Notes: generated by a model from the sequence alone, not told the origin. 64,000 bases of DNA from Candidatus Kaiserbacteria bacterium (GCA_016186695.1 JACPLC010000002.1:31335-95334), one strand, 5' to 3'; shown: positions 2 through 34,776, counted from the stretch's first letter. A program made the numbers and translations.

Positions 2-319
2 CGGGCCGGAAAGCCCATCACGGTGACGGCTCCGGGGACGCAGAAGCGCAATTTCACCCACGTGGAAGATACAGCGCGCGCGCTCCTCATGGTCGGTGAG
101 GGCGGGCATGGCGATGAGTATGGTATAGGCTCGCCGGAGTCGTATTCAATTCTTGAGATCGCGAAGATGTTCACCGATAAGGTTGTGATGTTGCCGGAGC
201 GTAAAGGGAACCGCATGGATTCGGTGGTGGACACAACGCGCATTGAAAAAGAGTTTGGCTGGAAACCACAGCACACGGTGCGCGAATACATCGAATTACT
301 GAAAGCTACCAAGAAATGA
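2..319 (+). CDS. NAD-dependent sugar epimerase/dehydratase (SDR family), C-terminal part; 5' end lies outside the window
   Basis: The frame is open from the window edge (..RAGKPITVTAPGTQKRNFTHVEDTARAL..). The C-terminal region is typical of GalE-like epimerases: a hydrophobic substrate-domain pattern ending GWKPQHTVREYIELL. The 23-coordinate ORF start is GTG inside a longer open frame. Confidence 0.55.
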   Translation, partial: RAGKPITVTAPGTQKRNFTHVEDTARALLMVGEGGHGDEYGIGSPESYSILEIAKMFTDKVVMLPERKGNRMDSVVDTTRIEKEFGWKPQHTVREYIELLKATKK

Positions 320-1557
320 AACGCGTACTTATTTTTTCGCTCGCGTATGTGCCGTATGTGGGGGGTGCGGAACTTGCGATAAAGGAGATTACTGATCGAC
401 TCGATACTTCTGAATACTCGTTTGACATGGTTACGCTTCGTTTCGATCGCAGGCTTCCGGCTATTGAGAAGATCGGAAACGTCACGGTGCATCGGATTGG
501 ATTTACCGCACAGAATGTGAAAGTTTCCGATAGGGCACTTCCGTGGCAGTGCAGGCTCGCAAAATCTTTATTTCCGTTCACTTCATTTCTGAAGGCGCGC
601 TCTCTCCATAAAGATATAAGATTCGACCTCATCTGGGCAATGATGGCCAATCAGGCGGGTTTCGGCGCTCTCTTTTTTTCTGCTTCGCTGAAGCTTCGCA
701 GAACAGGCAAGTACGTGCCCTACTTCTTGGAGCTGCAAGATGGCAACTCACTCGAACAAATTCAGGCGCGCAGGCCAATTGTTTCGCTCCTATGGCCGCT
801 CTATAAGCGTGTTTACTTCAAAGCCGATGCCATAAAGGCGATATCACAGTTCATCGCACGTCTCGCGCGTGAAGTCGGCTACCACGGCAAAGTAGAGGTC
901 ATCCCCAATGCAGTCGATGTTGCCAAGTTCTCTGTACCAATTCCGGAAGATGAGACGGCGGGGCTGAAAGAGAAGCTTGGCAAAAAGATGGGCGATGTGT
1001 TCCTTTTTACCGCATCGCGACTCGTGCTCTCGCGAGGAGTTGAAGAGGTTATTCGCGCACTGCCACAGCTTCCATCAAACGTGAAATTTCTGGTCGCGGG
1101 AGACGGGGAGGATCGTGCAAAACTTGAGGCGATCGCAAAAGAGGCCCATGTCAGGGATAGAGTCATCTTCGCAGGGCATGTCGCGCATGCCGATATTCCA
1201 AAATATTTAAAGGTTTCCGACATCTTCGTGCGGCCTTCGATCATTGAGGGAATGGGGAGTGCATTCGTCGAAGCATTCGCGGCCGGTATTCCTGTGGTAG
1301 CAACACCGGTCGGCGGCATTCCGGATTTTCTTTTTGATCCCGACCGCGACAAAGATATGGAGCCGACAGGACTTTTTTGTGAAGTGCGAAATCCGGAATC
1401 GATCGCGCATGCCGTTAAAAAATATATGGAGAACCCGACTCTCGCGGCTCGGATAATAAAGAATGCAAAAGCTCTCGCAGAAGAGAAGTACGATTGGAAT
1501 CTGATTGCGGAAGCAATGAAAAAGCAGATATTTGATCCGCTTTCCCAAAGAGGATAA
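316..1557 (+). CDS. Glycosyltransferase family 4 (GT-B, glycosyl transferase group 1)
   Basis: 413 aa. C-terminal donor-binding half ..DVFLFTASRLVLSRGVEEVI..SIIEGMGSAFVEAFAAGIPVVATPVGGIPDFL (EX7E-like GT4 signature). ATGA start/stop overlap with the upstream epimerase gene. Confidence 0.75.
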   Translation: MKRVLIFSLAYVPYVGGAELAIKEITDRLDTSEYSFDMVTLRFDRRLPAIEKIGNVTVHRIGFTAQNVKVSDRALPWQCRLAKSLFPFTSFLKARSLHKDIRFDLIWAMMANQAGFGALFFSASLKLRRTGKYVPYFLELQDGNSLEQIQARRPIVSLLWPLYKRVYFKADAIKAISQFIARLAREVGYHGKVEVIPNAVDVAKFSVPIPEDETAGLKEKLGKKMGDVFLFTASRLVLSRGVEEVIRALPQLPSNVKFLVAGDGEDRAKLEAIAKEAHVRDRVIFAGHVAHADIPKYLKVSDIFVRPSIIEGMGSAFVEAFAAGIPVVATPVGGIPDFLFDPDRDKDMEPTGLFCEVRNPESIAHAVKKYMENPTLAARIIKNAKALAEEKYDWNLIAEAMKKQIFDPLSQRG

Positions 1558-1812
1558 ATGGTTTGGAGGTTTGCTCATTCGGGTGTTTGCTGGGCGTAGG
1601 AGGGTGTCATGACAAAAAGAGTGCATCGACACGACCCGCAATGGTCGGACGAGACCAACGCGGCAATCGCACATACGCCCGAATCGACGACGGTCATCGT
1701 ATCGATCGGGATAGGCCCGCTTCCAAGCATGAGCAAAGGAAGCAGCGCTCCCGAATGGATCTGGTTTTTTCCATCGCTGTGGTTTGTGCCACTGACGGAA
1801 GGTTGACGGTAT

Positions 1813-1838
1813 GAGGGAGCGCACGTTCGCGCTCCCTT
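1813..1838. terminator. GC-rich hairpin (gggagcgc-acgttc-gcgctccc) followed by a T-containing tract, inside a 300-bp non-coding gap
   Basis: Perfect 8-10 bp inverted repeat read directly at 1815-1836. tataaagtg lies just downstream, before the next GT gene. Confidence 0.3.
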
Positions 1839-1861
1839 CCACTTTGCTATAAAGTGTTTCA

Positions 1862-2941
1862 ATGCGTCTTCTTCTGGCGACAGGTCTCTATCCGCCTGAA
1901 ATCGGCGGGCCGGCGACGTATGCAAAATTGTTCGAGGAACAACTCCCGAACTACGGCATCGAAGTCTTGGTGCTTCCGTTTAGTCTCGTTCGACACATGC
2001 CGCCGATTGTGAGGCACGTGGCGTATGCGTGGCTGCTCGCACAGCGCATGCGCGATGTGGATCTCGTGCTCGTGCAAGACACCGTCTCCACAGGATTTCC
2101 CGTAGCCATCATAGCGGGGCTTGCGGGAAAGAAGTTTGTCGTTCGCGTACCGGGCGATTACGCATGGGAGCAGGGAACACAGCGGTTTGGCGTCAAAGAT
2201 TCTCTCGATGATTTCCAGAAGCGCTCGTACGGACTGGCCGTCGGATTTCTTCGCTCGATACAGCGATTCGTTGTGATTCGCGCACATCGTGTTATCGCGC
2301 CGAGCACATACCTTGCGAAGGTTATTTCTAGTTGGTCTCCGCGCATAAAGAGGATAGAAGTTATTTACAACGGCATCGAACTGTCGGAGGCGCTTCCGGT
2401 CGCGCGGCAGGAAAATCTCATTGTTTCCTCCGGCAGGCTCGTTCCGTGGAAAGGATTTGACGAGCTTATCGAAGTCGTCAGTGCTCATCCTGAATGGAAG
2501 CTCGAAATTCTCGGCGATGGGCCTCGACATCGCGAACTCAGGGATCAGATACAGAAGGCCGGATGTGAAGAGCGGATAACGCTTCGCGGGCGTGTCTCTC
2601 ACGCAGAGGCCCGCGAGGTCTTCGCAAGCGCGACAGTTTTTGTCCTAAACTCCCGATATGAAGGCCTCTCGCACACGCTTATCGAAGCGATGTCGGTCGG
2701 CACACCGGTCGTTGCGACACGTGCCGGGGGGAACCCCGAGGTTGTTCACGATGGAGAGGACGGCATACTTATTGCGGTCGGCGACAAAATGGCTCTAGAA
2801 GGCGCTCTTACGCATGTGCTGTCGGACGCCGGTCTGCGAAGACGCTTGGGTGCCGCCGCGTCCGGTCGGGCGAAAGACTTTTCAATTAATAAAACCGTCG
2901 AGGCAACCGCCTCGCTTTTGAAATCATGCGTGTCCTCCTAA
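1862..2941 (+). CDS. Glycosyltransferase family 4
   Basis: 359 aa; ..SSGRLVPWKGFDELIEV..NSRYEGLSHTLIEAMSVGTPVVATRAGGNPEVV (GT4 EX7E motif region). Confidence 0.8.
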   Translation: MRLLLATGLYPPEIGGPATYAKLFEEQLPNYGIEVLVLPFSLVRHMPPIVRHVAYAWLLAQRMRDVDLVLVQDTVSTGFPVAIIAGLAGKKFVVRVPGDYAWEQGTQRFGVKDSLDDFQKRSYGLAVGFLRSIQRFVVIRAHRVIAPSTYLAKVISSWSPRIKRIEVIYNGIELSEALPVARQENLIVSSGRLVPWKGFDELIEVVSAHPEWKLEILGDGPRHRELRDQIQKAGCEERITLRGRVSHAEAREVFASATVFVLNSRYEGLSHTLIEAMSVGTPVVATRAGGNPEVVHDGEDGILIAVGDKMALEGALTHVLSDAGLRRRLGAAASGRAKDFSINKTVEATASLLKSCVSS

Positions 2942-4011
2942 TAAGTACTGATAGATCGATATTCGCCGAGGAGAGTTCTACGCGGCGCCGACATCGCGCA
3001 TATGCAAAATATTTTGATGAGCTGCACGTATTATGTATTTCGGAAGGGACTCCATTCGCGGCTGTGCGAGATGGGAATCTCACGATCTACCCATCATCTC
3101 CACCAGCTCCTTTTTTTAGTAAGCTTTCACGGCGTATACGAGCCGCATACAGTATCGCCGGCATTATCAGCAGGTATGGCATTGATGTCGTATCGGTCCA
3201 AGATCCTTTTGAGACTGGAGTTGCCGCACTTATTGGCATGATGGGGTTGGGAGCAACATTTCACGTACAGGTGCATACTGATTTTCTCTCGCCCAACTAT
3301 CGTCGACTTTCACTTATAAATCGAATACGGGCACTTATTGCAGGTTTCGTGTTGCGAAGGGCTTCACGCATCCGGGTCGTCTCTGAGCACATCAAGGCAT
3401 CAATTCAGGAGCAATACCATCTCAACGTACCAATTTCAGCTCTGCCAATTTTTGCTGACGTAGAGCGGATACATAGAGCTTCTCCAGACGAAAAACTGCT
3501 CGTGCGATTTGCTGCGTACAAAACCAAACTGCTTGTCGTTTCGCGTCTCGAGCCCGAAAAAAATGTCGGCCTCGCGATACGCGCGTTCGCGCGATCAGCG
3601 CCGAGAGATGTATGTCTCATTATCGTTGGCAGCGGCAGTGAGAGATTATCATTGCAACGTTTTGCAAAACGCCTGAATGTCGCCGAGCGGGTCTTTTTTG
3701 ACGCTGATGCGGAAGCGGCACCGTACTTCAAGTTTGCGGATCTCGTGTTGGTTCCGTCGAAATACGAAGGATATGGGCTCGTTATCATTGAGGCGCTTGC
3801 GGCGGGGAAACCGGTGCTCGCAACTGATGTCGGCATTGCGCGTGAAGCGGGGGCGATCGTGACGACCGAAGAGAAGTTTGCTGATGCACTTGCGGAGTGG
3901 TTCAAGAGCGGCCCGCGGACGGGAGAGTTGAAGAACTGCCCCTACAAAAATTTTGACGAGTATGTGCGCGCATACTGTGATGACATAAAAAGATGCGCGA
4001 TCGCTCAATAA
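2926..4011 (+). CDS. Glycosyltransferase family 4
   Basis: 361 aa; ..LVVSRLEPEKNVGLAIRAF..PSKYEGYGLVIIEALAAGKPVLATDVG. Overlaps the previous GT by 16 bp, consistent with an operon. Confidence 0.75.
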   Translation: MRVLLISTDRSIFAEESSTRRRHRAYAKYFDELHVLCISEGTPFAAVRDGNLTIYPSSPPAPFFSKLSRRIRAAYSIAGIISRYGIDVVSVQDPFETGVAALIGMMGLGATFHVQVHTDFLSPNYRRLSLINRIRALIAGFVLRRASRIRVVSEHIKASIQEQYHLNVPISALPIFADVERIHRASPDEKLLVRFAAYKTKLLVVSRLEPEKNVGLAIRAFARSAPRDVCLIIVGSGSERLSLQRFAKRLNVAERVFFDADAEAAPYFKFADLVLVPSKYEGYGLVIIEALAAGKPVLATDVGIAREAGAIVTTEEKFADALAEWFKSGPRTGELKNCPYKNFDEYVRAYCDDIKRCAIAQ

Positions 4012-26116: not shown

Positions 26117-26860
26117 CTATTCTGCGGAGAATGATGCTGCGGCTGCTTCCTCGGCCGGAAGCATCACTGATTTCTGCGGAGTTCCTCGTATTTTGAAAGA
26201 GTCGTATTCCTCGGGCGTAAGCGTGAACTCGTACTCTTTTCCTTGCGCGTCGTAGCACTTGGTCCACGACTGCTCGCCGATCTCCTGCGCGGCTATCATG
26301 CCCGTGGTCGAAGCAACTGCCTCGCCGAGGAAGTATCCCTCCTCCATATGTCCGGAAGTGGTGTCGTACAGAGGGGCGGTATACGACATCAGACATTGCA
26401 GCTTCACTTCGACGAGCTCGTCGGCCGAGACAGATGGGGTTGTAGATGCTTCTGTTTGAACACTCGGTGAGCTTTCTGTTGTCACGTGTACAGATTCTGC
26501 CGGAGGCTCCGCAGTGGAAGTTGCAACAGCAGGAGATGTCGTCTCTGTTGTGCTCGCAGTGTCCGCGGGTGATGTGGTGGCCGTAGCCGATGAAGTTGTC
26601 ACGACAGATTCTTCAGGGGTTGACGTTGCCGCACCAAGTACGGTTGGTTCCGGAGATATTGCGGGATCAGCCGTCGCTTGTTCGGTCGTTGATACCGGCG
26701 CAGAATCTGCGGTATCGGCGGGAGTGGTAGTTCCTAACAGCAACTCGGTGGAACTTGCCACAACCTGCGCCAAAACAGGTCGAACCACAAAAAATCCAAG
26801 CACGACCAATGCAAGAATCGCGAAACCGAGCCCTATAGAAACTACAATGTTGCTTTTCAT
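26117..26860 (-). CDS. Membrane-anchored Thr/Ser/Pro/Ala-rich (mucin-like) protein with a C-terminal globular domain
   Basis: N-terminal signal-anchor MKSNIVVSIGLGFAILALVVLGFFVV. About 130 aa of low-complexity T/S/P/A/E (..TTSSATATTSPADTASTTETTSPAVATSTAEPP..). C-terminal ~90-aa domain with Cys (..LQCLMSYTAPLYD..WTKCYDAQGKEYEF..). Confidence 0.5.
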   Translation of the reverse strand: MKSNIVVSIGLGFAILALVVLGFFVVRPVLAQVVASSTELLLGTTTPADTADSAPVSTTEQATADPAISPEPTVLGAATSTPEESVVTTSSATATTSPADTASTTETTSPAVATSTAEPPAESVHVTTESSPSVQTEASTTPSVSADELVEVKLQCLMSYTAPLYDTTSGHMEEGYFLGEAVASTTGMIAAQEIGEQSWTKCYDAQGKEYEFTLTPEEYDSFKIRGTPQKSVMLPAEEAAAASFSAE

Positions 26861-26874
26861 GTGATTAATATTGC

Positions 26875-27351
26875 CTAATAAAATGCTAATAATGATGACG
26901 ATGTCGTAAGTCGGTTGGCGTAGTCCCAGAGGTACGTCGTCGTTTGTCCATCGGTTGTCTTTTGCGCGAGGTTGCCGTTCGCATCGTACATGTACGTCGT
27001 GGTACTCACTCCGTTTGAGATTTCAGTCACCGCGTGCGGATTCGCATATCCAGTACCTCCATATGTGTACGTGCTTGAGGCTGTTCCACTTCCGCTCCAG
27101 AGCGCCAGCATGCTCCCCAGCGTGTCGTACTCATACTGCTGCTTGTATGGCAGAGAGTCCGCTGCCGTCGTGGAAGCGGAGAGGAGACGGTTCAGGGCAT
27201 CATACGAGAACACCGTCGTCGCGCTTGAGCTTGCCGCGGCGGGATTTGCGAGCTGCGTGATGTTGCCGAAGGATTTGTACAAGCGTATAGCGCGATATGC
27301 TCGCCACATCACAGCAAGAGATTCGGGGATATTTTCAGTTGATGTTTTCAT
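26875..27351 (-). pseudogene. Rhs/YD-repeat core fragment: a displaced partial duplicate of the adjacent rhs gene, lacking the DPxGL motif and a toxin tip
   Basis: About 120 aa (..NITQLANPAAASSSATTVFSYDALNRLL.ASTTAADSLPYKQQYEYDTLGSMLALW..YANPHAVTEISNGVSTTTY.YD.NGNL.QKTTD..TTTYLWDYANRLT) are near-identical to main-gene residues encoded at about 28804-29280. Both ends diverge (N-term MKTSTENIPESLAVMWRAY.., C-term ..TSSSLLAFY*). Confidence 0.55.
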
Positions 27352-27387: not shown

Positions 27388-27603
27388 TTATCTGAATAAC
27401 CAAGTTAATAAGATAAATATGCCAATGATCAAATTCGTCAAAGCTTGGAAGCGTGCAAATCTTATCGTGCCTTCGGTAGTTTCGCTCTGTTTCCATAGGT
27501 TGTGTCTTACCCAGTTGAAGAATTTTTTACTAAAGAGTCCGAGGGCTCCAATAATTGTGAAAAGGAGTCCAGCCAGAAGAATGACGATATCTTGATTCAT
27601 CAT
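27388..27603 (-). CDS. Small two-TM membrane protein, candidate immunity protein for the Rhs C-terminal toxin
   Basis: 71 aa; MMNQDIVILLAGLLFTIIGALGLF..(TM1)..TNLIIGIFILLTWLF (TM2). Immediately downstream of the rhs stop on the same strand, 21-bp gap, AT-richer than the surroundings. Confidence 0.45.
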   Translation of the reverse strand: MMNQDIVILLAGLLFTIIGALGLFSKKFFNWVRHNLWKQSETTEGTIRFARFQALTNLIIGIFILLTWLFR

Positions 27604-27624: not shown

Positions 27625-30600
27625 TTATGGGCCAGATTTCGACTTTCCGGCTGCTCGTTGAATCAGTGCGTTGAGCTGTGCGCGTATTACATTGATTCTT
27701 GCTTGTATGGCCGCGATTTGTGCCGCAAAAGAGTTACTGGAAACAGAGCCGCCTGAACTGGAACCTCCTTGAGCAGATTGCTGAGATTCAGATGGCCGGG
27801 TCGATTGTTGTTGTGCCGGTCGGTTGTTGCCGCTTCCACCTCCCGAAGAGCTAGGTGGTGGCGAGGATAACGGCGTGCCGGAGATAACTGCCTGTGCAAT
27901 TTGTTGGGGCGTGAGGTTTCCAGAATCAAGGTTGCGACATTCATGCTTTGCACAATATACATCTATTCCTGCAAGCGTAATGCCGGCAACATTTATAAGA
28001 GCGCCATATCCCGTCCACCCATAGAGATATGATGCGGCAGATCCCACAGCAAACAATGATAAATCGACATTTCTCTGTGCTTTATCGGCTTGTATTTCAG
28101 CAGTGCTTTCGTACGAAGAAACAACCCATGCATCATCCACTGATCTCGCTGTCTGCACACCGCTTACGCCTTCGAGAATCGGATAGAAGTAAGTTTCGAT
28201 TCCGGCTCTAGTAATTGTAAGTAGACCACTCGGATCCGAATTCGATATTGGGTTGTCTCCAGCATATGAATAACTATTTAACAGTTGCGGATTTGCGAGT
28301 AGCGTCCTGGCCGGTTTGCCCATGAGTCGCTCGATGTTTGGCGTTCCGATGGCAAGATGTAGAGGGTCTTGACTAAGGAATTGTCCGCGTTCTCCGTCAT
28401 AGTACCTAGCGTTTAGGTATGACAGACCACTTCCTTCGTCGAAGAATTGTCCAATGAATTCTCTGTTGGAGATATCTGTGCCGGAGTCGATTCTTGTACT
28501 GCCATACGGATAGTAGTCGAGCGTCTGCATCACGGCAGTGTTGTTTGCATTGGAGACGATGTTCGTGCTCCCCAGATGATCTGGATGTATATACCGCACT
28601 TCCGCGGTTCCCGTTGCACTGCCGTTCGTGAAGGCCTGATCTATCGTCGAAAGCAACGTATCACTGCTGAATATATACTCGGTCGTGGTCGCGTAGTTAG
28701 TCCCACTTCTCGTGCTTGACGCCACCGAGTACCATTTACTCGCATACGTCGTTGTTGCCGTCGTCGACGCTATCTGATACACCCTCGCCCCGAAGGCGTC
28801 GTAGCCGTAGGTTGTGGTCGAATTGTTGACGCCGAGTGCTGTCAGCCTATTCGCATAGTCCCACAGATACGTTGTCGTCACATTGTCTGTGGTCTTTTGA
28901 GAAAGGTTTCCATTATTGTCATATGAATACGTTGTCGTTGAGACGCCATTTGAAATTTCAGTTACAGCATGGGGATTGGCATAGCTCGTGCCAGAGTAGG
29001 CATACGTGCTGGAGGCCGTCCCGTTCCAGAGAGCCAACATACTCCCGAGCGTGTCGTATTCATACTGCTGCTTGTATGGCAGAGAGTCCGCGGCGGTCGT
29101 CGATGCTTGCAGCAACCTATTCAACGCATCGTACGAGAACACCGTCGTCGCGCTTGAGCTCGCCGCAGCAGGATTCGCGAGCTGTGTGATGTTGCCCGCG
29201 GGATCGTACGTGTATGAGAAATCCTGGACGTTGGAGCTGTTCGCCAATGTTTTTAGGTTCGTCAATCTGTACAGGGCATCGGCGTTGTAGGTGCGCGTGG
29301 TCGAGGCGCCGCTTCCGAAGACTGTCGTGATGGATTGACTCGTCGGCGCATACGTGAGGCTGCTCACGATGTCGCTGAACGATCCGCCTGAAGGTTTGCG
29401 CTGTATTCTGCTCGGCAATCCGGCGTTGTTGTAGCCCACGGTGACGGCTGTGCTGTTCGGGTATGTCCACGAGGTAACATTGCCCTGCCGGTCATACGAG
29501 TATTGCATGTTGTATGCATTGTTTAAGATCGTGGTTGTTGCGGAAAGAATGCGGCCGAGTATGTCGTAGCTATTCGTCGACGTCGCGGACGTCGATGAGG
29601 CGGAGCAAAGGTAGCCGATGCCGTTGGTACAGCTGTCATAGACGAGGGTGACTTCGGTGCCGGAGGCTCCCGTGTAGTTCTCGGTCAGCATGCGGTTGAG
29701 GGCGTCGTATGTGCGGTTCACTGTTTGAGCCTTCGGATCAGTTTGGGACGTGAGATTGCCCTGATGATCGTAGGTGTACGACCAGATGCCGAAGGTCGTG
29801 TCGGTGGCGTTGTGCAGGTCTTGCGCCGAGAGACGCCTGCCGAGGCCATCGTACGTGAAGCCGCGGACATTGCTCCTGCTGTCGGTCGTCGTTGCGAGAT
29901 TATTCTGCACGTCGTACGAATGCGTCGTCGTGGCGAAGACCGGTACCGTTCTCACCTGATTGCCGACACGCGCTTCCACCGCTACCTCGATCCAGTCGCT
30001 GTTCGTGGTATGTGTCCAACCGAGCGATTGAGCGCTGGATGTTGACGTTTTCAGAACGCTCGCGCCATGAGAGAAGTTGTTGGAGCATTGGTTGGTCAGT
30101 TGTTGTATTTGAGGCGAGTTTGCAGTCAGAGTCTGGCTCAAGTTGTACCAGAGATTGTCATCCACGATCGAATTATCACTTTGTGTGGTAATCGAGATTG
30201 AAGGATCGCCCGTTGTGCCGGTATTGAACTTCATTGCCCCGATTGGGTTCACGGTGTCCGTTCCGGTGTACGAGACGGCCGAAACGTACCCACCGCTATT
30301 CGGAGAAAACGTGACAACAACGTTGTTTGAGCCGCTCGTGGGATTAGTTAGGTACCACGTTCCGACTCCTCCTGTTGAAGTGGCGAATGTCATGTCGACG
30401 CCGGCGTACTTCACGGTTGATACAAAGGGAGAATCTATCTGAACAAGTAGCAGCGTCGACGTGGCGCTGACAGTCTTTGAGAGCTCTACAGAGGCCACCG
30501 ATGAGCACATGACAGTATTAGCGGGGCCGTTCGTCCCGGTTTCGATCGATATCGAGGTACCCACCGCTGTCGTCGTCGCGGCGTACAACCCCCGTTCGAC

Positions 30601-33600
30601 GACAGTCGCGAGATTGCCGAATGCGTCATACCAATACACTTTTGTGTTGCCGTTCGGATCGGTCGCCGTCGTTGTCCATTTCGCGTACGAGTTGGTTTTG
30701 GTGCCGACGGCGTTTGCTTCAGACGTGAGACGCTTTAGTGGGTCGTAGAGGTAGTTCGTATAGAGAGCCGTGGTAGCAGTTGGCGTCGTATACGCCGTGC
30801 TAGAGGATGAGTATGGAAGAGTGGACGAAGCGAGAAGTCCCACCTGACTATACTTTCGATCTGTGACGAGGAAGATATTGGAGTCGGGCGATTCTTTGCG
30901 CTCTTGGAACAACCGATTGAATCCATCGAAATACTGGTATGTGTCCACTGTGTTTCCCGGAAAGAGCCAATCGCTTCGCTGAATCGAGCTGGGAGTCGTC
31001 GTGCTGTCGATGTACGTGTAGACAGTGGTCGTCGCGTACGTTGAAGGCGTCGATGTCGAAGACACGTCTACTTCTTTGAGACGCCCGACTCCATCGAATA
31101 CGTTTTTCATCAGTGACTCGTTCGGGTCGTTCTTCCATCGTACTTTTCCGTTTGCATAGTTGTATAGAAGTTGCGTCTTCTGGAGTAGCGCATTCGTGGA
31201 CGTGGCAACGTACAAGTTGTTTGCATCGTAGACATACGACGTTGCGTTGCCATTGCGATCCGTCGAGGTTGCGACAAGGCCGTACGAATTATGCGTCTTG
31301 GTGGAGCTCGCATACATGGTGCCGCTGATCCAGTCTTCCTGCTTCGTGTTGTTGCCGACGTTTACCGACCCGAACGCGAGCGAGTCGTAGTAGAACTTTT
31401 GATCCGTGCTCGTCGCACCGTTGTAGTCGAGGAGCGTCTTTTGGGTAGGTACACTCATGTTCACTGTGCTGCTCGCTGCGTATGATATGTTCGTCGTGCG
31501 TTTGTCCGTTCCACTGTCGGTGAATTCGGCACTGTCCGTATTGCCGCTGACCTCTCCGTACTCGATAGTTTGGATCAGGTCATTCGTAGTCGAGGAGTAA
31601 TGGTAGTCGATCGCTTTGTCGCGGTGGGTGCCGTCCGAGGCATAATCCAGCGTCACCTGCCTACCGAGCCCTATGAACGTGCTATCGCCGTGCTCAACCG
31701 TGTCCCACCGATAGAGCGCGCGCTGTTTGAGATTGTTGGAAGTATCGGAAACGTCTTTGCGCGTAGGTCGGCCGATGCGGGCGAGCGAGTTCTGCCCGTA
31801 GTGTGTCGTGACGATCGAATCGGGATTCGTTACTGTCACCGGTGAAAAGCCGGCGAACCGCCTGTCGCGCACCGTCGTGTTGTACCAGTGCCCGTTCGAG
31901 TATGAATACGTCGTTGTCGCATAGTTGCCGAGACCATCATGGGTCACTGTCGTACTTGCGGCAAGCACTCTGATCGCCGACCCGGGATTCCCGGCCATCT
32001 TGTATGCGATCGCGATGCCGCCGCCTTTGGGATTCGTAACGTTCGTAATCACATCCTGTTGCATTTGCCCGTTGCCATAGAAGTTCACGAACTCGTTGTA
32101 TGCGATCGTGCTCGTTCCCGCGTTGCAGGTTGCTATGTACGCGGGCAATGTGTACCTCGTGCTTGTCGCCCAACCGCTGCCGGTATTGAGGTATACGGCC
32201 TTTACGTCCGCGACTTCGGTGCCGACGCATCCTCCGCCTGATGCGCCGAGGTACGAGCGGACGAGATCCGTGAGACCGTCACCATTCATATCCATGAAGC
32301 GGATACCACGGTCGTAGTAATTGCCGTTCGATAGGTACGTTGTTGATGTGGCGAATGTCCAGTGCGAATCGGGGACGCTGTTCCACCCGCTGCCATTGTT
32401 CAGTAACACATACGTACTGCTTGCGGCGGAATAGACCCAGTCGTCGAGGTTGTCGCCGTTGATATCAACGAGTTGCGACGCGGTTTCCGTGGGCGCAGTC
32501 GAGGGGAACGATTTCGCTGCGGGAAATACCGTTACCGTGCGGTCCCACGCGGATCCGTTGCCGAGGTACGTGGACGTGGCGAGTTCATTGGTGAGCGCCG
32601 TGAGGTAGTCGGGCAAGCCATCGCCGTTCACGTCTCCGAAGAGGCCGCCAGTGAGGTAGAGGCCGCCACTCGTCTTTTTCGCGAAGGTGGGAATGTTTCC
32701 CGTGTAGCTCGTTGACGTTGCCGACCAGCCATACGTGTCAGTGGTAGTCGAATATTGGTTGTTGTAGATGGCGTAATCAGAGGTGCCGGCAGAATCGTCG
32801 ATCCATCCACGCACCGCGTCTGCTTTTCCGTCGCCGTTGATGTCGAGATAGCGCACGCCACGCTCCAGAGGCACCTGATTCGGATATCCCGTACTTGCCC
32901 AGTACTCGGGAGGCGCGTGGCTCGCGTCCGGCACGGCAATAGCGCTTGCCTCGTTGTCGTGCCACATGAAGCCATTGCCCGTCCCGGGCATGAAGAGATT
33001 CACGTCGTTGATCCCGTTGCCGTCGGTGTCTGCGACTGCGTAGTCTGCTCCGTCCACGTTCTGTATCGCCGGTCCGAAGTATTGGGTGGATGAGCTCGCA
33101 TAACTGAATGTCATCGCAGGGAGCGTAACGAGTGTATTGTTGTCGTCGTAGCCCTGCTGCACGATGCTTGTGAGGAGAGAACGAAGGCTGTTGTTTCCAG
33201 TCCCATACCCCAGGAGATACTTTCTGACTGTCGATCCGTTCACTGAAGCATCGATTTCATAAATTCTTTTAGTTGTGGTCGCGGAAAATCCGGATGCGTA
33301 GCTGATGCGAGCGTCGGGCCGCGTCGTCGTTGCAAACGTGATCGTGAACGGCCCGTCGGTCGAGCCCTTACCTGTGTATGTGATCGTATCGGGGTATAGA
33401 GTATTATTATCTCTTAAATATGTGTACTCGATGTAGTTGTCGTTTGTGTCGCGGATCTCTTGGAGCATCCAGCGGTAGGTGTTCGTCGACGTGCCGGTGC
33501 CCGTGTCGTACATCCTGCCGGAATCATCGGAGCCGAACGTGTATCGCGTTCCTCTTTTGTCGTACATCGTCCACGAGGTGGTGGCGAAGGTGTACACGTT

Positions 33601-34707
33601 GAACGACCCGTCATCGACCTTTGCGAGGTACGTACCGGCACTTCCCGAGCTCGCGCTTGGCGCCTTCACCTCTACCGCTATCTCGATCCAAGCGCCGTCA
33701 CCAGCCGAATGTGTCCATCCGAGCGATTGAAGGCCGGAGGATGTCGTCTTCAAGACGCTCGCGCCATGGGAGAAGTTGCCCGAGCAGCTGTCGGTGAGCT
33801 GCTGTATCTGGGGCGAGTTCGCAGTCAATGTTTGAGTCCCATCGTAAAAGACTTGGTCGTCCACTGCCGAGTAGTTGCTCTCCGTCGTGATCAGTACCGA
33901 CGTATTGCCGGTGGAGCCTGTGTTGTACGCCATCGCGCCGATCGGATCCGACGTGTCGGTTCCAGTGTACGAGACGGCAGAAACGTACCCGCCGCTGCTT
34001 TGCGAAAGGTTGACAACCAGATCATTCGTTCCACTCGTCGGGTTTGCGAGATACCATGTCTCAACTCCGCCAGTTGAAGTGGCACGCGTCGTGTTTACAC
34101 CGGCGTACGTCACGCTGGAAATGAAAGGGGTGTCGATGTGCGCAATTAGAAGAGTCGAGGTTGAACTTACAGACTTTGATAGTGAAAATGGGTCCGATGA
34201 CGGCGTGCATCGCATAACTTTCGTCGGTCCATTTGAGTTGGTTTCGATCGAGATGGTTGCCGTTGTCGTTGCTCCGCTTGACGTTGAGCTTGCAACGAGC
34301 TCGCCATCAATCGACGAGGTGAAGTATGGAATCGTGCCGTATAGTTCCTGCGAACCAATCTTGTTGAGGCGTTCGATGTATGGAATGGAAAGCTCCCACC
34401 CGTAGCCGACGATTCCATCTCTCGTGCGCTGGCTGTTGTAATCGAGTGCGATATCCGGTTGGAGGCCGTTACGGCCGGGAAGAATGTCGAGAGGGACGCG
34501 CTGCGTAAATGCTCCGGTGGACCCGTCTATCTTCGGATCCTCCGTTACTGCTGAAAATACCGACGCATTCGGGACTGTTGGCGATCCGTCGCCGAATGCC
34601 GCGAATGCGAGACCAGCCGGTGATATCGAAAAAAGGGAAACAACAAAAACCGCCAGTACGCGGGTGATGCGCCGCAATTCCGCGCCAACGAGATTTCGGC
34701 TTTTCAT
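27625..34707 (-). CDS. Giant Rhs-family polymorphic toxin with TcB-TcC-fusion-like architecture (SpvB-like N-domain, FG-GAP/VCBS repeats, YD/RHS repeats, RHS core, variable C-terminal toxin)
   Basis: About 2360 aa from MKSRNLVG.. (ATG 34707, signal peptide follows; the maximal ORF runs to 34776). SpvB-like ..VPLDILPGRNGLQPDIALDYNSQRTRDGIVGYGWELSIPYIER. FG-GAP/VCBS motifs (DTDGNGINDV, LDINGDGKADAV, GDVNGDGLPDYL, VDINGDNLDDWV, MDMNGDGLTDLV). Dozens of YD repeats (YxYDxxGNL..). Core end ..YYDGERGQFLSQDPLHL..(41 aa)..DPSGL, followed by a 198-aa tail. Confidence 0.85.
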   Translation of the reverse strand: MKSRNLVGAELRRITRVLAVFVVSLFSISPAGLAFAAFGDGSPTVPNASVFSAVTEDPKIDGSTGAFTQRVPLDILPGRNGLQPDIALDYNSQRTRDGIVGYGWELSIPYIERLNKIGSQELYGTIPYFTSSIDGELVASSTSSGATTTATISIETNSNGPTKVMRCTPSSDPFSLSKSVSSTSTLLIAHIDTPFISSVTYAGVNTTRATSTGGVETWYLANPTSGTNDLVVNLSQSSGGYVSAVSYTGTDTSDPIGAMAYNTGSTGNTSVLITTESNYSAVDDQVFYDGTQTLTANSPQIQQLTDSCSGNFSHGASVLKTTSSGLQSLGWTHSAGDGAWIEIAVEVKAPSASSGSAGTYLAKVDDGSFNVYTFATTSWTMYDKRGTRYTFGSDDSGRMYDTGTGTSTNTYRWMLQEIRDTNDNYIEYTYLRDNNTLYPDTITYTGKGSTDGPFTITFATTTRPDARISYASGFSATTTKRIYEIDASVNGSTVRKYLLGYGTGNNSLRSLLTSIVQQGYDDNNTLVTLPAMTFSYASSSTQYFGPAIQNVDGADYAVADTDGNGINDVNLFMPGTGNGFMWHDNEASAIAVPDASHAPPEYWASTGYPNQVPLERGVRYLDINGDGKADAVRGWIDDSAGTSDYAIYNNQYSTTTDTYGWSATSTSYTGNIPTFAKKTSGGLYLTGGLFGDVNGDGLPDYLTALTNELATSTYLGNGSAWDRTVTVFPAAKSFPSTAPTETASQLVDINGDNLDDWVYSAASSTYVLLNNGSGWNSVPDSHWTFATSTTYLSNGNYYDRGIRFMDMNGDGLTDLVRSYLGASGGGCVGTEVADVKAVYLNTGSGWATSTRYTLPAYIATCNAGTSTIAYNEFVNFYGNGQMQQDVITNVTNPKGGGIAIAYKMAGNPGSAIRVLAASTTVTHDGLGNYATTTYSYSNGHWYNTTVRDRRFAGFSPVTVTNPDSIVTTHYGQNSLARIGRPTRKDVSDTSNNLKQRALYRWDTVEHGDSTFIGLGRQVTLDYASDGTHRDKAIDYHYSSTTNDLIQTIEYGEVSGNTDSAEFTDSGTDKRTTNISYAASSTVNMSVPTQKTLLDYNGATSTDQKFYYDSLAFGSVNVGNNTKQEDWISGTMYASSTKTHNSYGLVATSTDRNGNATSYVYDANNLYVATSTNALLQKTQLLYNYANGKVRWKNDPNESLMKNVFDGVGRLKEVDVSSTSTPSTYATTTVYTYIDSTTTPSSIQRSDWLFPGNTVDTYQYFDGFNRLFQERKESPDSNIFLVTDRKYSQVGLLASSTLPYSSSSTAYTTPTATTALYTNYLYDPLKRLTSEANAVGTKTNSYAKWTTTATDPNGNTKVYWYDAFGNLATVVERGLYAATTTAVGTSISIETGTNGPANTVMCSSVASVELSKTVSATSTLLLVQIDSPFVSTVKYAGVDMTFATSTGGVGTWYLTNPTSGSNNVVVTFSPNSGGYVSAVSYTGTDTVNPIGAMKFNTGTTGDPSISITTQSDNSIVDDNLWYNLSQTLTANSPQIQQLTNQCSNNFSHGASVLKTSTSSAQSLGWTHTTNSDWIEVAVEARVGNQVRTVPVFATTTHSYDVQNNLATTTDSRSNVRGFTYDGLGRRLSAQDLHNATDTTFGIWSYTYDHQGNLTSQTDPKAQTVNRTYDALNRMLTENYTGASGTEVTLVYDSCTNGIGYLCSASSTSATSTNSYDILGRILSATTTILNNAYNMQYSYDRQGNVTSWTYPNSTAVTVGYNNAGLPSRIQRKPSGGSFSDIVSSLTYAPTSQSITTVFGSGASTTRTYNADALYRLTNLKTLANSSNVQDFSYTYDPAGNITQLANPAAASSSATTVFSYDALNRLLQASTTAADSLPYKQQYEYDTLGSMLALWNGTASSTYAYSGTSYANPHAVTEISNGVSTTTYSYDNNGNLSQKTTDNVTTTYLWDYANRLTALGVNNSTTTYGYDAFGARVYQIASTTATTTYASKWYSVASSTRSGTNYATTTEYIFSSDTLLSTIDQAFTNGSATGTAEVRYIHPDHLGSTNIVSNANNTAVMQTLDYYPYGSTRIDSGTDISNREFIGQFFDEGSGLSYLNARYYDGERGQFLSQDPLHLAIGTPNIERLMGKPARTLLANPQLLNSYSYAGDNPISNSDPSGLLTITRAGIETYFYPILEGVSGVQTARSVDDAWVVSSYESTAEIQADKAQRNVDLSLFAVGSAASYLYGWTGYGALINVAGITLAGIDVYCAKHECRNLDSGNLTPQQIAQAVISGTPLSSPPPSSSGGGSGNNRPAQQQSTRPSESQQSAQGGSSSGGSVSSNSFAAQIAAIQARINVIRAQLNALIQRAAGKSKSGP
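28804..29280 (-). repeat. Segment of the main rhs gene that is duplicated as the displaced fragment at 26875-27351
   Basis: Shared protein stretch on the sense strand. Shared antisense ORF peptides (..LPSVSYSYCCLYGRESAAVV.., ..RIHTAACMAESP..) appear at both loci with a 1929-bp offset. Confidence 0.55.
29953..30555 (-). repeat. Intragenic duplicated ~200-aa domain, copy 2 (inserted within the RHS-repeat region)
   Basis: ..ISIETGTNGPANTVMCSSVASVELSKTVSATSTLLLVQIDSPFVSTVKYAGV..SGGYVSAVSYTGTDTVNPIGAM..TLTANSPQIQQLTNQCSNNFSHGASVLKT..SLGWTH..WIEVAVEA. About 65% identical to copy 1, offset 3708 bp. Confidence 0.6.
33661..34263 (-). repeat. Intragenic duplicated ~200-aa domain, copy 1 (rhs N-terminal region)
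   Basis: ..ISIETNSNGPTKVMRCTPSSDPFSLSKSVSSTSTLLIAHIDTPFISSVTYAGV..SGGYVSAVSYTGTDTSDPIGAM..TLTANSPQIQQLTDSCSGNFSHGASVLKT..SLGWTH..WIEIAVEV. Mirrored by homologous antisense ORFs at 33875-34405 and 30143-30442. Confidence 0.6.
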
Positions 34708-34776
34708 GAAAGATCTTTCTACGCGCGCGAGTATATAACGACTTCTCGAGCCGTGATTTGAGAAAATCGAGCCCAT

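Follow-up and report, generated by a model that had tools for sequence, protein, structure and literature searches.

What kind of protein is encoded by a very long reading frame that lies among glycan genes, and at what is it aimed? The question is raised by a 64,000-nucleotide stretch of DNA from Candidatus Kaiserbacteria bacterium, a member of the Patescibacteria group (GCA_016186695.1 JACPLC010000002.1:31335-95334; the whole stretch is called the window below). The reading frame occupies positions 27625..34776 and, like all other features of the window given here, lies on the minus strand (-). Patescibacteria are known as episymbionts, with genomes of about 1 Mb and a dependence on other cells. 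A sequence-only reading of this DNA had proposed an Rhs polymorphic toxin in which the TcB and TcC subunits of insecticidal Tc toxins are fused into one chain. We found that the gene very probably encodes an Rhs polymorphic toxin of this single-chain TcB-TcC type and has an immunity-like gene next to it, and we propose more tentatively how the toxin might act.

Architecture of the protein

The frame contains 2383 codons plus a stop codon when counted from the first ATG, and it runs through 27625..34776 without interruption. An identical protein from Met24 on is present at NCBI as 'VCBS repeat-containing protein [Candidatus Kaiserbacteria bacterium]' with a length of 2360 amino acids (aa), on a 105.6-kb contig, and the equivalent methionine is the start in close homologues. 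The real start is probably Met24 at 34707, which would give a product of 2360 aa. Because the NCBI protein and the homologues begin at the equivalent of Met24, the length of roughly 2360 aa proposed earlier is correct. The peptide quoted from the SpvB region, the DPLHL..DPSGL motif and the 198-aa tail (aa 2186-2383) were all found in the translation. Scans for promoters and terminators gave fewer matches than shuffled sequence and were uninformative.

At the N-terminus, a basic stretch is followed by the most hydrophobic 19-aa segment of the protein (Kyte-Doolittle 2.2, centre aa 49) and by AFA|A. This N-terminus (MKSRNLVGAELRRITR; aa 24-60, 34597..34707) is conserved in 18 homologues and in L007 and, judged from sequence and hydropathy, looks like the Sec signal peptide that had been suggested. 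The SpvB/TcB N-terminal domain comes next and is split. Its first part (aa 85-168, 34273..34524) was detected by Pfam SpvB (E=3.7e-13, with one further stretch) and lines up with residues 34-~107 of TcdB2, and the second part, which includes the TcdB middle region (aa 376-570, 33067..33651), was placed by Pfam and profile alignment. An FG-GAP (integrin-like) beta-propeller (aa 571-900, 32077..33066) was recognized by five DxNGDGxxD motifs and a fold match, and Pfam FG-GAP_3 gave E=1.4e-5 with 26.0 bits, 0.9 bits short of the cut-off at 26.9. The Rhs/YD shell is made up of a TcB-like part (aa 901-1390, 30607..32076), the end of which aligns with the TcdB2 C-terminus, and a TcC-like part (aa 1606-2087, 28516..29961) with Pfam, NCBIfam and profile matches. 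Within the protein, Pfam RHS_repeat was significant over four stretches (E=2.1e-22) and NCBIfam YD_repeat_2x (TIGR01643) reached E=2.4e-10. The Rhs-associated core, or aspartyl autoprotease plug (aa 2088-2185, 28222..28515; NCBIfam Rhs_assc_core, TIGR03696, E=2.9e-15), contains D2137 and D2181 and has a predicted cleavage site after L2185, where the 198-aa tail begins. The SpvB, RHS and core families expected by the sequence-only reading were thus all significant, with FG-GAP_3 just below threshold and its repeats visible as motifs. The 'dozens' of YD/RHS repeats that it mentioned was a generous count by sequence, since 14 [YFW][DN]xx[GN]x[LVIM] motifs and 22 YD dipeptides were found by pattern; the ~970-aa shell could have room for about 45 hairpins.

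When the single sequence was searched against the PDB, only Rhs proteins of T6SS (the type VI secretion system) were found, and only with the last ~500 aa (E=1e-17 to 1e-10). A profile of 28 family members instead matched the solved TcdB2-TccC3 fusion with E=3.1e-57 in four significant stretches, as well as TcdB1 (1.6e-24, over the middle region and the propeller), YenB (6.3e-21, over the SpvB domain) and TccC2 and YenC2 (~1e-32). The sequence-only reading had proposed a comparison of the predicted structure of the N-terminal ~1000 aa with the TcB propeller and the RHS shell. An AlphaFold model of aa 60-1010 (951 aa; mean predicted local distance difference test score, pLDDT, 75.5) was compared with the PDB by Foldseek, and the top 13 matches were all TcdB1, TcdB2 or YenB chains (E=7.5e-26 to 4.2e-21), at a sequence identity of only 13-14%. 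T6SS Rhs shells, an SpvB N-domain and the FG-GAP lectin PVL ranked below them. In the core, D2137, P2176, D2181, P2182 and G2184 were invariant across 28 homologues. Self-cleavage of TcC needs two aspartates, which are D651 and D674 in TccC3 (PMC7861908). D2137 and D2181 appear to correspond to these catalytic residues, at a distance of 44 residues here compared to 23 in TccC3. The agreement between the profile matches, the TcB fold matches and the invariant autoprotease aspartates supports the fused B+C cocoon that had been proposed. The N-terminal half is homologous to TcB and the C-terminal half to TcC/Rhs shells, with both catalytic aspartates kept.

More than 300 homologues have the same shell. 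Many of them come from Patescibacteria, in which the family is common, and the few that are named belong to Patescibacteria, Bradyrhizobium, Vicinamibacterales or Thermoanaerobaculia. The tails of homologues with this shell are Tox-REase-7, HNH, Ntox44 or Tox-ART-HYD1, and the tail studied here had no counterpart among the 120 closest homologues. This is thus a genuine polymorphic-toxin family, as the earlier reading had it, because nuclease or ADP-ribosyltransferase tails are found on the same shell in other members.

The variable tail and its partner gene

The variable C-terminal cargo (aa 2186-2383, 27628..28221) has a mass of 20.4 kDa and a pI of 8.0 and consists of a Gly/Ala-rich stretch (aa ~2238-2275), a YCxxHxCRN sequence, an S/G/Q-rich linker and a heptad-patterned C-terminal helix. 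When 1.84 billion representatives were searched exhaustively, only five true relatives emerged, all of them Rhs tips. Common to this tail family are the Gly/Ala-rich hydrophobic stretch, a D-x-Y-C-x2-H-x-C motif, a low-complexity linker and the C-terminal helix. The 38-aa Gly/Ala-rich stretch holds the most hydrophobic 19-aa segment of the protein besides the signal peptide (maximum Kyte-Doolittle 1.53, centre aa 2267), and in the C-terminal helix the residues I, I, I, I, L and L are spaced 3-4-3-4-3. The motif, more fully D-x-Y-C-x2-H-x-C-[RK]-[ND] (cargo aa ~2272-2282, 27952-28065), sits after the hydrophobic stretch. Its D, Y and both Cys were invariant in six of six family members and its His was present in five of six, and it could form a disulfide loop or a small metal site. 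A pattern scan of a metagenome collection with a four-sequence tail alignment returned only already known loci, and a six-sequence alignment was too variable for such a scan.

A 71-aa open reading frame (ORF; 27388..27603, GC content 0.38) with two hydrophobic helices starts 21 bp past the toxin stop codon. Homologues with two transmembrane helices (two-TM) and a length of 70-83 aa lie directly 3' of the same tail in L003/L004, L005/L015, L006 and L018-L020, with two tandem copies in L005/L015. The small two-TM family has 23 members (pairwise BLASTP E=2e-19). One of them follows this tail family in every related locus with readable DNA, and the tail and the small gene travel together even in orphan cassettes that have no shell. 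A Pfam scan at E<=5 produced no credible match to the 71-aa ORF, and no named Tox, Ntox or Imm Pfam family matched the tail or its partner. Since this rare tail is accompanied by a homologue of the 71-aa ORF in every related locus that could be read, the ORF is a likely immunity gene. The conserved small gene also suggests a bacterial target. From the hydrophobic stretch of the cargo and the membrane-embedded partner, we infer that the toxin may be membrane-active.

Two jelly-roll inserts

Two inserts of ~205 aa interrupt the TcB-TcC layout. They had escaped the sequence-only reading, as had the 71-aa gene, the orphan rhs cassette and the fall in GC content described below. Copy 1 (aa 169-375, 33652..34272) breaks up the SpvB domain; the loop that receives it is short in TcdB2 (around residues 107-120). 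Copy 2 (aa 1391-1605, 29962..30606) begins 25-30 residues past the site aligned to TcdB2 residue 1464, and since TcdB2 ends at residue 1474, the insert lies at the seam of the TcB-like and TcC-like halves. The copies are 63% identical (E=9e-89) and 71% identical in DNA. P0002, a homologue with 60% identity, has inserts at the same two positions. Elsewhere in the shell, other homologues carry inserts of different kinds, LamG-like and Ig-like domains among them. An assembly artefact was rejected as the source of the duplication because the inserts share no more than 71% identity at the DNA level and P0002, on an independent contig, has the same double-insert architecture. Copies within one protein were 62.6% (here) and 67.0% (P0002) identical, compared to 56-59% for positional counterparts between the proteins, a pattern suggestive of concerted evolution, or of selection acting on both copies for a single ligand.

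A model of the insert (pLDDT 83.8) superposed over its full length on predicted viral structures (TMq 0.63-0.78, E=1e-7 to 1e-4, 16-22% identity) that are annotated as 'minor tail proteins' of Gordonia and Mycobacterium phages and of uncultured tailed phages. Four of 12 domain copies also matched the actinobacteriophage families phrog_553 or phrog_2106 ('minor tail protein'), weakly (E=3e-5 to 7e-5). In Pfam, the inserts had no credible match at E<=5. Taken together, the inserts may represent an exchangeable, outward-facing recognition module. The jelly-roll was also seen in non-Rhs exported proteins of a Nitrososphaerota archaeon, Curtissbacteria, Planctomycetales and Dehalococcoidia (L008 2461-10278; L010 4111-7281; L011 4181-5545; L013 5668-7440). 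The Nitrososphaerota protein has an open frame of 2606 aa, and in Planctomycetales the domain stands directly after the signal peptide. By its sequence distribution, the jelly-roll appears to be a mobile extracellular module common to bacteria and archaea.

Downstream flank and genomic setting

The immediate flanks had been described as containing only sugar genes. This did not hold downstream, where the 71-aa two-TM ORF is followed by an orphan rhs fragment and a 247-aa exported protein. The orphan (26875..27351, 158 aa) has a conserved ~28-aa leader and then repeats aa 1857-1979 of the main gene, and it contains no core and no toxin. It is 89% identical to the main gene in this region at the aa level and 74% at the nucleotide level, with most differences synonymous. 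In a Nei-Gojobori estimate the synonymous sites were saturated, with only ~89 sites available, so only the qualitative result was used. We read the 158-aa ORF as a truncated orphan cassette that may come from a diverged allele. The GC content falls from 0.55-0.62 in the gene body to 0.44-0.49 in the tail and core and 0.38-0.40 in the immunity gene, and the orphan and the low-GC 3' end may together be the record of a past cassette exchange by recombination. The P0002 locus likewise has an orphan plus a small gene.

A similar ~28-aa leader opens orphan Rhs cassettes at four independent loci (27264-27351 of the window, L017 8090, L018 3886 and L001 1545). The pattern, M-x6-9-[ER]-x-S-[LF]-x-x-[MI]-x-x-A-Y-[RL], was defined after inspection of these four sequences; it is joined to differing points of the Rhs 3' region and was not found in 120 full-length homologues. 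The sequence GTACAATTGC, just upstream of the leader, is common to L017 and L001. The leader may be a cassette-specific start or expression signal. The 247-aa protein (26117..26860) begins 14 bp after the orphan and has a hydrophobic N-terminal anchor, an S/T/A/P-rich linker and a small C-terminal domain, for which Pfam at E<=5 gave nothing credible; whether it is part of the toxin system is uncertain. In L017 (9275-9856) and L018 (5651-6280; L018-L020), an exported protein follows the tail and immunity genes, with a signal peptide, an S/T-rich linker and a C-terminal domain of ~90 aa (E=1e-40 between loci). The 247-aa protein has the same layout and position, but it was rejected as the equivalent of this third gene because no sequence homology was found (E=0.64 compared to 1e-40).

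Apart from the downstream flank of the toxin, the other genes scanned in the window were all glycan enzymes. They comprise seven GT4, three PMT_2 (GT-C), two NeuB nonulosonic-acid/CMP-sugar sets, three DegT aminotransferases, GT9, GT2 and an ABC exporter. For a genome of ~1 Mb, this is a very large share. The cluster around the gene had been reported correctly, but it was over-read as context. The P0002 and P0114 loci lie in other gene settings, so a glycan context was rejected as a feature of the family and the setting here is incidental. No TcA, T6SS or type VII secretion system gene was found among the scanned genes of the window, which also contains no other ORF >600 aa and no tRNA genes, and none of the three was found within 10 kb of the P0002 or P0114 loci either. 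The absence of TcA and of nearby T6SS genes, as first noted, therefore extends over the window and to the surroundings of these two homologues. The P0002 locus contains a type I restriction-modification system and phage-like genes, the P0114 locus contains SMODS and SLATT (CBASS-like) genes, and the L006 cassette (247-3531) lies beside HEPN_AbiU2 and a resolvase. The toxin family tends to lie in variable islands near defence or mobile genes.

The toxin contains 34 copies of the tetrapeptide A-[ST]-[ST]-T, compared to 1.7 +/- 1.2 in composition-preserving shuffles, with none in the cargo, and Ala precedes 37 of its 54 S/T runs of >=3 residues. The 34 copies are encoded by 33 different 12-mers. 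A DNA repeat was therefore rejected, and the motif is selected at the protein level. It was enriched in 60 of 60 homologues checked, with only ~32% of sites positionally conserved, so the sites turn over. Among 54 ORFs of the window the tetrapeptide was nearly confined to exported proteins (34 copies in the toxin, two in the orphan and six in the 247-aa ORF). Its role could be that of an O-glycosylation site or of a strand motif, and in the former case the enzymes of the surrounding 64-kb glycan cluster could carry out the modification. Chromosomal Bradyrhizobium homologues (P0006, P0012, P0013 and P0020, on contigs of 8-9 Mb) share this motif as well as the jelly-roll domain and are 50-67% identical to the toxin over long stretches. 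This similarity suggests that gene transfer may have occurred between Patescibacteria and Bradyrhizobium.

Relation to known systems

The protein shares with the Tc BC subcomplex (TcdB2-TccC3, YenB-YenC2) the SpvB N-domain, the FG-GAP propeller, the Rhs/YD cocoon, the two-aspartate core and a hypervariable cargo of ~200 aa. In contrast to that subcomplex, it is one polypeptide with a signal peptide, is encoded by a Patescibacterium with no TcA in the window, and has an immunity-like gene and an orphan cassette adjoining it. The two ~205-aa jelly-rolls in the SpvB loop and at the seam of B and C, and the spacing of the aspartates (44 residues compared to 23 in TccC3), are further differences. 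Another precedent is the class of 'TcdB/TcaC-type' polymorphic toxins, which Zhang, de Souza, Anantharaman, Iyer and Aravind (2012, PMC3482391) catalogued as combining a signal peptide, SpvB, an integrin-like propeller, RHS, a variable toxin and immunity genes. The Kaiserbacteria protein matches this architecture exactly, with the signal peptide here predicted from its N-terminal residues. Patescibacteria are not in the phylum list of that paper, and jelly-roll inserts do not appear in the passages that were searched.

WapA and the T6SS Rhs effectors (Tse5, Tse15, RhsA, Tre23) have an Rhs shell, a core autoprotease (predicted here), a variable toxin, a downstream immunity gene (a candidate here) and orphan cassettes in common with this system. 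Unlike them, the protein has no PAAR, VgrG or clade domain and no wall-binding repeats, and a TcB-like half replaces the N-terminal plug. Mosquito SGS1 (PDB 8FJP) and the teneurins are likewise single-chain Tc-like shells in which beta-sandwich receptor domains are formed from segments inserted into the repeats. The solved SGS1 shell has a hydrophobic cargo of transmembrane helices at its C-terminus, enclosed behind an aspartyl-protease site (PMC9935623). In contrast to the bacterial protein, SGS1 and the teneurins are eukaryotic, have inserts of the carbohydrate-binding-module or lectin type at other places and have no immunity gene, and the likeness is one of design. No paper was found in the literature that discusses these proteins in Patescibacteria. 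The architecture class and B-C fusions are already on record, and what is new here is the tail with its two-TM partner and the two phage-tail-like inserts at defined positions.

Proposed mode of action and alternatives

In our working model, the single chain would be exported by Sec and the shell would close around the tail. The aspartyl protease would then cut after L2185, leaving a free 20-kDa cargo inside the shell. The two paralogous jelly-rolls would protrude from the shell and bind a surface ligand of the target cell, which might be another bacterium, whether kin, competitor or host cell. The cargo would leave through the propeller end, its Gly/Ala-rich hydrophobic hairpin would enter the target membrane from outside, and its heptad helix would drive oligomerisation. 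In the membrane of the producer itself, the two-TM protein would block the cargo. We regard this sequence of docking by inserts, self-cleavage and a membrane-active cargo blocked by the two-TM protein as plausible and tentative. The identification of the toxin and the working model, when judged as one combined statement, are moderately probable.

Several observations weigh against this model. The nucleases and the ADP-ribosyltransferase of same-shell relatives must reach the cytoplasm, and since such cargo acts there, the family needs a route across the membrane. The search for a TcA partner covered 64 kb of this genome, and a TcA-like gene could lie elsewhere. The usual transmembrane threshold on the Kyte-Doolittle scale is about 1.6, and the hydrophobic stretch of the cargo, at 1.53, is below it. 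The tail also had no match in Pfam (E<=5) or in the PDB profile search. Because of the sub-threshold hydrophobicity and the lack of a match, the membrane-active cargo is the weakly based part of the model. The C-x2-H-x-C element could instead be metal-binding or catalytic. In L017, a small two-TM ORF follows a different Rhs tip of similar layout, and in the 951-aa model insert 1 was predicted at low confidence (pLDDT 32-69), its outward position being a presumed one.

The alternative that survives best is a contact-dependent inhibition toxin that is kept on the surface of the producer, like WapA of Bacillus subtilis, and delivered only on cell contact instead of being set free into the medium. 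The bacterium has no outer membrane, and the combination of a signal peptide, an Rhs shell, a variable tail and an immunity gene downstream follows the WapA/WapI logic; it is a speculative thought that the A-S/T-S/T-T motif and the surrounding glycan genes might aid surface retention. This alternative differs from the working model only in the location of the protein. However, Pfam and NCBIfam scans detected no cell-wall-binding, LPXTG, SLH or lipobox element, and WapA lacks the SpvB and propeller modules. We consider this alternative unlikely.

The receptor-like domains that resemble phage minor tail proteins, together with a propeller that resembles the fungal N-acetylglucosamine-binding lectin PVL, would also fit a surface adhesin or attachment device of an episymbiont. 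Such a teneurin- or SGS1-like protein would use its hydrophobic tail as an anchor in the membrane of the host or in its own. The episymbiont lifestyle of Patescibacteria, the precedent of SGS1 as a shell with transmembrane helices, and a tail in which Pfam and PDB recognized no catalytic domain are consistent with this function. An anchor would not be expected to behave like this tail, however, which varies between close homologues, is replaced by nucleases or an ADP-ribosyltransferase in relatives, and is accompanied by a tail-specific small membrane protein even in orphan cassettes without a shell. These features and the Rhs-type cassette turnover seen here are typical of toxin-immunity pairs and not of adhesins, and we consider an adhesin in place of a weapon quite unlikely.

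The nearest solved relatives, TcdB2-TccC3, TcdB1 and YenB, raise the alternative of the BC part of a classical three-part Tc (ABC) toxin, with TcA encoded elsewhere in the genome and a eukaryotic target such as a protist or an invertebrate. In Tc toxins TcA docks on the propeller, bacteria that encode TcA are on record with natural fusions of the B and C genes (PMC7861908), and the cytoplasm-acting cargo of the relatives needs a translocator. Nevertheless, we judge this alternative very unlikely, because the window has no TcA domain and no second ORF of the size given above, the 10 kb around two homologues has no TcA either, the sequence identity of the model to TcB is low, and the presence of a cognate immunity-like gene and of orphan cassettes suggests that bacteria are the targets. 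A signal peptide is present here as well, whereas to our knowledge the Photorhabdus TcB and TcC have none.

The working model can also be taken further, to a TcA-independent one-chain device in which the jelly-rolls dock on the envelope of the episymbiont's host, the propeller gate opens and the oligomerising cargo forms a pore, while the two-TM protein shields the producer's own membrane. In this form it is improbable; if it were true, the pore of the Kaiserbacterium would extract metabolites from the host or kill it.

Implications

The toxin is a naturally occurring TcB-TcC capsule for which no TcA translocator is visible, and it makes target recognition and cargo release in such 'A-less' Rhs capsules testable. 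Judging by the phage-tail-like inserts, the shell itself may carry an exchangeable means of recognizing the target, which is relevant to the engineering of Tc and Rhs proteins for protein delivery. The tail and its two-TM partner add a candidate family of membrane-acting toxins with their immunity proteins. Should the target be the episymbiont's host, the system is relevant to the ways in which such bacteria exploit the cells they live on.

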